Shown one piece after another: positions 12,001 through 15,000 of a stretch of DNA of 15,788 nucleotides. The DNA comes from Bdellovibrionota bacterium (GTDB lineage: Bacteria > Bdellovibrionota > UBA1018 > UBA923): the NCBI GenBank assembly GCA_040754655.1, contig JBFMCE010000091.1, positions 1 to 15,788 of the forward strand. The letters are read 5' to 3'. Position numbers: made by a program. Numbering within the stretch: position 1 is the stretch's first letter; the number at the start of each line of letters is the position of its first letter.

Positions 12001-15000
12001 GATTCAAAAAAATACTCGCCGAATTCGCGTCGACCCTCGAAAGCATAGCACGACAACACAGTACCTTAGACCACTGGATGGCGCTTCTGCTCAACACCGC
12101 TTTTCATGCCGGAGTCGTAGCTGCCGCTCAAAGCGCTGAGAACTCAAAAGCCTACTACGCTGCGATTCCAGAGATTGAAGAAGAAACCGAACCTTGGAGC
12201 CGATATCCACAGCTACTAGAGCTTTTGGAGCGGCAGTTGCGCAGAGAAACCCGTCGTCGCACTGGTCTCGTGACTGGGTTAGATTTTTAGGGCCATACTT
12301 ATTTGGCTTTTGTTATTGGTAAGCCAGCGCTTTTCCAGCTGTCGAAATCTTCAAAATAAGCCGTTTTAAAGCCTTCTTTTGAAAGTTTTTCAGCGTAGTG
12401 TTTCGCGCGGCCACCGCTGGCACAGTGAAAAACGATCTCTTTGTCTTTTGGAAGCGTTTTTACGAATTCTTTCCATTCGTTTTCACTACTCTCGATTTTG
12501 CTCGATGGAAACCATTTCGAAGGAGTGGCCTTTCCACTTTCTTTGAGCTCATCGCTTTCTCTGACGTCTATGAGAACGGCGAAGTCATTTGAAAGCATTC
12601 CGTAAGTTTCTTGAGGAGTCATGAGCCTAGGTGCGCGTGTTTCGGTCTTGGCCTTGCATGCCGACAGGAGAGCCAGCGCAAGGCATGTGAAAATGAAGGA
12701 TGTGAAAGTTTTTCGCCAAGGAATTGGTCGCATTTCGTTCTCCTTGGCGTCTTTTACATTATCCAATTAAACATTGGAAATTTTCTCAAGTTTAGGTAGA
12801 TCAGTCTTTCTCAAAGATCTTTGCAAAGTTGAGTTAACGGAGAGATGGCCGAGTGGCTTAAGGTACTCGCTTGGAAAGCGAGCGTTGGGTAACACCAACC
12901 GAGAGTTCGAATCTCTCTCTCTCCGCCATTTTAAGCAAGTCATTGCAAATCACAAGTAAGCACTGAGCGCGGCTACTTTGTGGCTTCAAATTGACTTTTC
13001 CTTCACCAGTCTAAGCCACTCTCGAAAAACTAACTTTTGTCAGGGGCCTAGGTGAACTCGGATTTTTGCTTAAGGGATTAGAAGAAGGTGTGAGGCTTTA
13101 CGGCCAGCCTCACAACAATCAATATTCAGCGTGTTGAGGTGCCGAGGGCAACAAGGCAAGATGCCTCGCGCGCTTCACTGCCTGAGTAAGCTCGCGTTGT
13201 TGTCTTGCGTTGAGACGGCTGATCCTCGAAGGAACAAGTTTAGAGCCTTCAGAAAGGAAATTGCGAAGCGTTTCGACGTCTTTATAATCAAAGGTAAGGT
13301 CGGCGGGTGGTTTACGACGACGCCCCTTAAAACCGCCGCTTCCGCCATCTCGGTCTTTATAACTATCCTTGTCTTTATAGTTTTCTCTGTCGCCTCTATC
13401 GCCACGTCCAAAGTTGTCTCTATCTTCCATGTCTTTTCCTCAAATCTTTAAATAAGCGTTAAGCGAGTTCTTCTCCAGAGCTCTTTGCATATCGAACAGC
13501 TGAGAGTTTTCCGTTCTTTTCTACCCGCTTAATTCCAATGCGTGACGGCTTACCCTTACTGTCGAGTAGCATTACGTTTGAATAATTGATGGGGAGCTCT
13601 TTTTCGACGATGCCACCCTTAGGATTTGCTTGAGTGGGTTTAGAATGTTTTTTGCGAATATTTACGCCTTCTACGACGATTTTCATATCTTCCGGATAAA
13701 CCGCCGTTACTTTGCCAGCTTTTCCTTTACTGCTGCCCGCAATAACTTGTACGGTGTCACCTTTTTTGATCTTCAACTTCATAAATTAAATAAACCTCCA
13801 GAAACTGCTTTGAGTCGGGCTATTCAGATACCAGAATTTCCCTTTTCTTTCAGTATTTTTTCTACGGCGCCAGGCGATGCGTTTTCATCCATTGAGTTAC
13901 CAGCCCAGAAACTTCTTTGATCAGTGAACTTGCTCCGGCCTGGATATGATCGCCATTAGTTTGGACGCGTTCGACTTGAGCTTGAGAGTGTTCAAGCGAA
14001 TGCCAAAGCGCATCAACAGATGTTTTGGGTAAAAGATTGTCCTTTTCCGCGCTGACCATCAGCACACGTTGGTGAGATTTCAAGTTTGCAATTGATTCTT
14101 CCGGCGAAGGAGCTTCTAAATACCACCAGCCTATTGAGGTCACCAATTTGGCGAGTACTTCGCCAAGTAAACCAAACCGTGGTTGCAGCCTTTGAGCGAG
14201 GCGTTGTTCCAAGGTTTCAGGAATTTGAGCAAAACCATGAATCAGAATTACTCCTGTAATATCAGGATCTTCTGCGGCTGCAGCCAATGCAAATGGAGCT
14301 CCAAAACTTGCTCCAAGGATGAGCGTTTGCGTCTTATTGACATCGGGGCGCTGGTGCAAATACGACTTTAGAAGTCGTATTCCTTTTAACGTGTCTTGAA
14401 CCGCTCGTTTTGCTTCTGGCGCGTGTCGAAAACTTTGGGGAAACTCAAATCTCCTCGGAGGAGAAAATGGATAGTCAAAGCTTGCGGCAATGATCGGAAT
14501 AGATGGTTTTACAAGCTCTAATACTCGGGCTGCCCGTTCAAATCCTCCAAAAACGAGAAGGGTCGGAGTTTTTTCCTTTGTTTTTAGTGGGTTGGACACA
14601 AGAAGTGTCGCTCTGATCTCTTTGTCTGGTCGAATCGGAAGAGAGCAAAATTCGTGACGAACCGCGGTAGAAGTCGTTTCACTAGCTCCGAGAATACTAG
14701 GAAAAAGAAGGCCAATAAGGAAGGCGACGAGGCAAAAACAGTTCTTCATTTACGACTTTGGTCATCGTAGTTCAATTTCGCCGGGAAAGAAATACCCCTA
14801 GCCTCATAAGGTGAAGCTAGGGGTAGGAAAAGATATCCAAATACGCTTTTTAAAATCGTATATTAAAGTGGTAATACTACCGAGCCGAAGACAAACAAAC
14901 CGGGGTCTGTGCCCTGAAAAGTCACTCCAGTATCTGCTCGGGCGGCAATATTTTCGTTAATAAGTAGCTTTAAGCCGCCGCCCAAGAAGGCATTGAAATA

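Follow-up and report, generated by a model that had tools for sequence, protein, structure and literature searches.

A cysteine-free rplX outside the spc operon in order UBA1018 (Bdellovibrionota) and its predicted place in a zinc-sparing ribosomal protein swap

The rplX-rpsR cassette of the window

The window, meaning the whole stretch of 15,788 nucleotides analyzed here (contig JBFMCE010000091.1 of assembly GCA_040754655.1, a member of the bdellovibrionotal order UBA1018), carries a cassette of two ribosomal protein genes, rplX and rpsR, in the same orientation with 28 bp between them and on the 3' side of a tRNA-Ser gene. The cassette and its flanks comprise the following features.

12839..12928, plus strand: tRNA-Ser(GGA), convergent with the rplX-rpsR cassette (ARAGORN)
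13089..13114, minus strand: terminator-like hairpin directly 3' of rpsR, with a 9-pair stem and a T-rich tail
13119..13430, minus strand: rpsR paralog encoding bS18, 103 aa, 0 Cys (TIGR00165, 70 bits)
13459..13782, minus strand: rplX encoding uL24 in its Cys-free (C-) form, 107 aa (TIGR01079, 114 bits; PF17136)
13783..13861, minus strand: gap of 79 bp 5' of rplX, with no Zur-type box
13862..14749, minus strand: alpha/beta-hydrolase gene upstream of rplX (weak Pfam hydrolase matches)

The rplX product passes the uL24 family test (TIGR01079, 114 against a cut-off of 53.7), lies outside the spc operon and is the sole rplX match in a 90% complete assembly. The survey's finding that the only assembled rplX is Cys-free, outside spc and co-oriented with a Cys-free rpsR therefore stands, both products having 0 Cys. 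It also placed the canonical, Cys-bearing (C+) rpsR of this genome on contig C147, where we find the second rpsR, with cysteines and behind an rpsF-like ORF; L28, L31 and L32 of this genome have 4 Cys apiece, as had been counted for the first two.

The hairpin, a consensus match of a kind found 4 times in the region against 3.9 expected, likely marks the end of the rplX-rpsR unit, and the hydrolase gene is probably unrelated to the cassette. The contig is syntenic with those of family kin. G112 and G113 have homologs of the hydrolase gene, but no rplX comes after them and the cassette is absent there; in G115 the same synteny block has the tRNA-Ser with no rplX-rpsR within the 12.6 kb examined.

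Some further observations concern the surroundings. In family f1, all four L24-S18 cassettes with downstream sequence adjoin a tRNA gene (Arg in three, Ser in the window). A strong hairpin lies between rplX and an outer-membrane gene on the side of positions 15730-15788, and at those positions a Zur-type half-site, cut by the contig end, precedes the same gene. At 5191-6639, a PlsY-like N-terminal part is in frame with a periplasmic binding protein part, and ABC permease and ATPase genes follow on its 3' side (by translation only).

Two forms of uL24 and loss of the spc copy

Across the order we surveyed 116 genomes, found rplX in 106 and read all 111 genes; the matches number 112 because the gene of G055 is split by a frameshift (an spc rplX at L127, possibly an assembly error). 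Two forms exist, as the survey had proposed. Fifty-six of the 111 genes are spc-linked and encode two CxxC motifs, 17 are spc-linked without CxxC, and 38, in 37 genomes, lie outside spc, so that two CxxC motifs occur in 56/73 spc copies versus 0/38 of the others. The four-Cys motif shared by the 56 proteins suggests that C+ uL24 binds zinc. Both forms occur together in G041, which had been singled out for this, and also in G034, G038 and G040. G036 has two C- clusters and G037 one, neither genome having an assembled rplN.

The spc-linked genes without CxxC include 16 from family f2, whose Cys-free copy within spc had been noted before, and one from G025. A uL24 tree (93 columns) recovers the C+ spc genes as a clade even with the Cys columns removed (support 98/93). 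The spc rplX of G025 (L099:93-560) falls inside this clade with all four cysteines lost in place and is, on its sequence, a second route to zinc-free uL24. The f2 copy falls outside the C+ clade; a constraint that groups it with this clade was not rejected (p-AU 0.52), and we therefore do not claim its replacement in place. All 16 f2 copies are Cys-free with a short and divergent C-terminus, and the f2 genomes searched seem to possess only an L31 that is long and of type-B size.

Outside spc, the gene keeps characteristic company. A co-oriented gene for L28, L31, L33, L32, S18 or S14 lies within 2.5 kb of 35 of the 38 copies; the rplX of G028 stands alone. Neighboring S18 has 0 Cys in 17/17 cases, L31 has 0-1 in 22, L33 0-1 in 11, L28 1-2 in 29 and S14 1-2 in 11. 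The description of these neighbors as Cys-poor is thus correct for five proteins and fails for L32, which is C+ in 3 of 14 cases (G051, G052, G093).

In all 28 order genomes that have a non-spc rplX, no spc copy, and rplN and rplE on one contig, rplE directly follows rplN, which bears out the earlier claim that the spc copy is lost and the two genes joined. These junctions contain no rplX remnant; their 93-487 nt mostly encode a long N-terminal extension of uL5. In G098 a uL5-like N-terminus comes straight after rplN, and G021 and the genome of the window lack rplN. The uL5 extension itself, rich in Lys, Ala and Glu and about 30-70 residues long, is found across the order and class and is absent in f20 and f23.

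Displacement also affects rpsN, rpsR and rpmE, to judge from gene content. Among 71 genomes, rpmE is present twice in the two-form genomes G034, G038, G040 and G041 and also in G114 and G096, and each of the 12 carriers without Zur-type boxes (see below) that have rpmE in the cluster has that rpmE only. In 15 such box-less carriers rpsN is absent from spc and rpsH directly follows rplE; a long C- rpsN sits in the cluster of these genomes, where visible. In most carriers, as the gene counts read, the cluster is the sole source of these ribosomal proteins and no longer an alternative set. Presence or loss of the spc rplX requires at least 10 changes within the order on a poorly resolved L14+L5 tree (122 rows, 52/117 forks unresolved), the plain reading of which would be several independent losses.

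Displacement also occurs elsewhere in the phylum, as far as gene order indicates. Of 301 phylum genomes, 295 have rplX, and 42 genes from outside the order, picked by score and family spread, divide into 12 spc C+, 15 spc C- and 15 non-spc C-. The last are arranged as S18-L33-L24 in f13 and f14 and as L28-L24 in f18, f20, f23 and f29, and in 5/5 genomes checked, including two assembled as a single contig, rplE directly follows rplN. None of the genomes from which these 42 genes were read proved to be two-form. In f20, f23 and f29 the displaced uL24 is about 90 aa long and fast-evolving, and the L28-L24 unit is divergent from a Cys-poor rpsR.

Ordinary spc C- genes from other phyla account for 77 of the best 80 named loci with a uL24 like that of the window; three show the same gene arrangement as here, with titles that fit Bdellovibrionota. 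A 200-genome sample of the class of G346 contained no C+/C- pair: three genomes gave two matches, the only real pair being that of G510, with both copies spc C+, and the 12 best loci were all spc. With E values of 8e-4 and 3e-5, the second matches in G270 and G340 were too weak to be accepted as rplX. When metagenomes were scanned with the G034 paralog, 79 of 80 loci were spc and no new cluster appeared. One metagenome contig (L429:1183-1473) has an rplX fragment, its 3' end cut, with no rplN before it and a small HTH gene adjoining.

Zur-type boxes and the state of this genome

We scanned about 430 bp upstream of each cluster against the 17-bp ZUR consensus for Desulfovibrio znuABC-zur, itself a prediction, counting a cluster as boxed if each of two sites departed from it at no more than 4 of 14 positions. 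Seven of 37 order clusters scanned are boxed (G034, two in G036, G037, G038, G040 and G041); G036 and G037 are congeners of the two-form genomes. In each, two palindromes with 1 to 4 mismatches of 14 lie upstream of the first gene, rpmE, and in six of the seven a spacing of 8 bp separates the pair, which lies between sequences read as -35 and -10 elements. No two-site match came from the remaining 30 order clusters (28 from genomes that have lost the spc rplX, plus those of G098 and of the genome of the window) or from 15 clusters outside the order; G021 was left out of the scan, its upstream sequence being too short. The best site was reached by 0/100 resampled sequences in six boxed clusters, and in G041, where the best single box is weak, by 9/100. 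A tandem pattern built from these loci, and hence circular for them, occurs at seven places in 5/116 genomes, six of them these promoters, against 0 in the control; it misses G034, where the spacing differs. All boxed clusters come from two genera (g22, g23) and are therefore not independent.

A Fur-family gene is divergent from six of the seven boxed clusters and also, adjacent and with no box, from that of G071. The neighboring Fur-family proteins match PF01475 and reach no NCBIfam cut-off for Zur, Fur or PerR; it is the box and the ZigA neighbors that point to Zur as the regulator. The COG0523 proteins of G038 and G041 pass the ZigA cut-off and the L31 of G036 that for type B. G036 and G040 have further boxes, in front of genes that read as TonB-like and CbiM-like from their ORFs, and a TonB receptor of G041 scores best, under the cut-off, as ZnuD. 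Zur-type boxes, recognized by their sequence, are thus now seen before a C- rplX in genomes that keep both forms.

For the window the picture differs. No Zur-type box was found in the ~400 bp upstream of its rplX; the best match has 5 of 14 mismatches, a score equaled by 62/100 resampled sequences, and absence is judged here by mismatch counting. Genome-wide, eight sites have 2 mismatches (control 3), none near an evident zinc gene. No Fur-family gene and no ZnuA were found in this 90% complete assembly, and its CobW-like protein scores far under the ZigA cut-off. Zinc control of the C- rplX, which had been proposed from motif and neighbors, is hence backed by boxes in the two-form genomes and has no such backing in this one.

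Whether the window rplX is the organism's only copy turns on its spc operon. The survey had held that the rplN region of this genome is unassembled. The gene is indeed missing, and the gap appears to be the whole spc operon, since the rplE that is present is probably foreign. It belongs to a fragment on contig C161 (rplE-rpsN-rpsH-rplF-rplR-rpsE-rpmD-rplO) whose uL5 is 54-63% identical to that of family members, against 72-77% between G107 and G110, G114 and G115, and 64% between G107 and the long-branched G109. This fragment, which we take to be betaproteobacterial in likeness, is probably mis-binned and may inflate the completeness figure of the bin. A search with the ORFs of six family spc loci found no S10-spc genes in this assembly beyond C161; together with the divergent uL5, this leads us to regard the organism's own spc operon as unassembled. 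The claim of a C- rplX placed among zinc-free paralogs and substituting for the spc copy accordingly applies to many lineages (28/28 junctions), whereas in this genome the S10-spc region is unassembled.

On balance it seems fairly likely that the window rplX is the organism's only rplX, because every box-less carrier that can be checked lacks an spc rplX. There is an appreciable, smaller chance that the unassembled spc operon contains a C+ rplX, in which case the rplX-rpsR pair could be a conditional backup under a regulator not of the g22/g23 type, a reading that we treat as possible. The retained C+ rpsR keeps it alive: two rpsR genes occur in only 4 of 86 genomes, namely this one, G038, G040 and G068, and as the second rpsR of G068 is divergent and may be foreign, the other real cases are two-form genomes. 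The counterpart in rplX would lie in the unassembled S10-spc region. By IleRS, the nearest relatives belong to genus g6 (75-78%), and G111 and G113, in which the locus is assembled, have an spc C+ rplX; L28, L31 and L32 of this genome are C+. Against it stand the loss of spc rplX in all 28 box-less carriers whose rplN-rplE junction is assembled, the example of G109, a member of the same family that has kept its C+ rpsR and yet lost the spc rplX, and the failure to find a Fur-family gene here.

A predicted zinc-sparing swap and known systems

We consider it likely that uL24 belongs to the ribosomal proteins that are swapped in this order to spare zinc, under Zur control, and that the swap was repeatedly made permanent. 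The usual state, as read from the sequences themselves, is an spc-linked rplX with CxxC...CxxC. In some lineages a second, Cys-free rplX is part of an operon with L31B, Cys-poor L33, L28, S14 and S18 and a ZigA/COG0523 protein, with two Zur-type boxes overlapping its predicted promoter and a Fur-family gene divergent from it. Zinc-loaded Zur would repress this operon and zinc starvation release it, so that the C- copies are predicted to be induced in low zinc. In a third step, whose end state is seen in the genomes and whose order of events is our inference, the boxes would be lost and the operon become constitutive, and the spc C+ rplX would be cleanly deleted, often with C+ rpsN, rpsR and rpmE. 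The rplX-rpsR pair of the window may represent a two-gene, box-less remnant of such an operon. The distribution of boxes, present where both forms coexist and absent where the C- copy is alone, fits a Zur-repressed backup that lost its control and then displaced the original; if so, the route long proposed to lead from a regulated paralog to displacement can be followed in this order, along with a regulatory trace.

Alternatively, a foreign C- cassette may have entered the genome, for instance next to a tRNA gene, and have replaced the native genes by drift, with Zur control in g22 and g23 a later and local addition. Such a history, which we regard as unlikely, would account for the absence of the cassette at this position in kin and for the 30 of 37 scanned order clusters that are box-less. 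The non-spc copies form at least two or three groups and not one clade, and other routes may thus have brought in some of them. The window uL24 groups weakly with spc sequences of Ignavibacteria and Kapabacteria (88/90) and apart from the L24-S18 cassettes found in its family. The outside sequences of this 93-column tree were, however, chosen for likeness to the window gene, and because of this biased sampling we claim no transfer from those groups. Moreover, the would-be donor genes lie in spc, while the cassettes gather a zinc-ribbon set of ribosomal proteins that is scattered in normal genomes, and cobW-type genes persist in the box-less clusters of G084 and G102. That the two-form genomes are binning chimeras of two organisms is very improbable: these are metagenome-type assemblies and the present bin does hold a foreign spc fragment, but four genomes, at 93-97% completeness and 1-3% contamination, show the pattern, with the cluster on contigs of 194 kb (G041) and 77 kb (G040); congeners have related copies with the same boxes, and the window contig shares its synteny with those of family kin.

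If the swap took place as proposed, the next consideration is what it serves. The C- S14 of Bacillus has been proposed to support new assembly of ribosomes. The C- uL24 would most likely likewise serve de novo assembly under low zinc, and not exchange on mature ribosomes, since uL24 initiates 50S assembly (PMC6426284). In the consulted parts of two reviews, the Zur-regulated C- paralogs are L31, L33, L36, L32, L28, S14 and S18, which join intermediate or late 50S assembly, none of them early, and L24 is not named there (PMC6103462; PMC11672702). We lean, with little more than even confidence, toward uL24 being the eighth Zur-controlled ribosomal protein paralog and the first 50S initiator among them, and toward fixation of such backup operons being a general route to zinc-free ribosomes for whole lineages of this phylum, one that broke up their conserved spc, rpsF and rpm loci. 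Zinc starvation would then remodel ribosomes from the first assembly step, a core, early-binding protein being added to the seven zinc-swapped at middle or late stages, and all stages (boxed with both forms, box-less as sole copy, scattered) would be alive in one order. Whether metal supply can switch an assembly initiator is testable now. For phylogenetics, rplX serves as a vertical marker in concatenated trees, yet it is paralogous or xenologous in about one-third of these genomes.

Several elements of this scheme have precedents. The claim that uL24 joins the C+/C- ribosomal proteins holds in that the forms are real, and is not new: both forms and the zinc site of Thermus thermophilus were published by van den Elzen 2023 (PMC10450194), who define C+ uL24 by the same (CXXC)-(CXXC) pattern and relate the isoforms to the growth temperatures of different species. 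Our comparison within one order concerns instead a second rplX, its gene context and its boxes, and we found no discussion of a second rplX, gene context or Zur control in the consulted passages of that study. Duplication of L24 was likewise recorded in 3 of 995 genomes, in a table and without mention of L24 in the main text (Yutin 2012; PMC3353972, Table S3): Haliangium ochraceum (by column position), one spirochaete and one alphaproteobacterium, the latter two probably reflecting the near-identical operon duplications described in the same paper. A literature search that covered few subscription journals did not turn up any description of an rplX paralog linked to Zur, nor of a departure of rplX from spc in this phylum. 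What appears new here is a C- rplX inside a predicted zinc-starvation operon with Zur-type boxes.

The boxes resemble ZUR_D, the 17-bp palindrome predicted before Desulfovibrio znuABC-zur (Rodionov 2004; PMC545781); there the box precedes zinc ABC transporters, whereas here the boxes precede ribosomal protein paralogs, in tandem and mostly 8 bp apart. The closest parallel is the set of Streptomyces coelicolor (rpmE2, rpmF2, rpmB2, rpmG2, rpsN2 and rpsR2 with yciC), which, as outlined in the reviews cited above (PMC6103462; PMC11672702), likewise combines Cys-free paralogs with a COG0523 protein, upstream Zur-type boxes and a C+ copy at the canonical locus. The clusters of UBA1018 differ from sets of this type in including uL24, an assembly initiator, and in that the operon is the sole source in most carriers.
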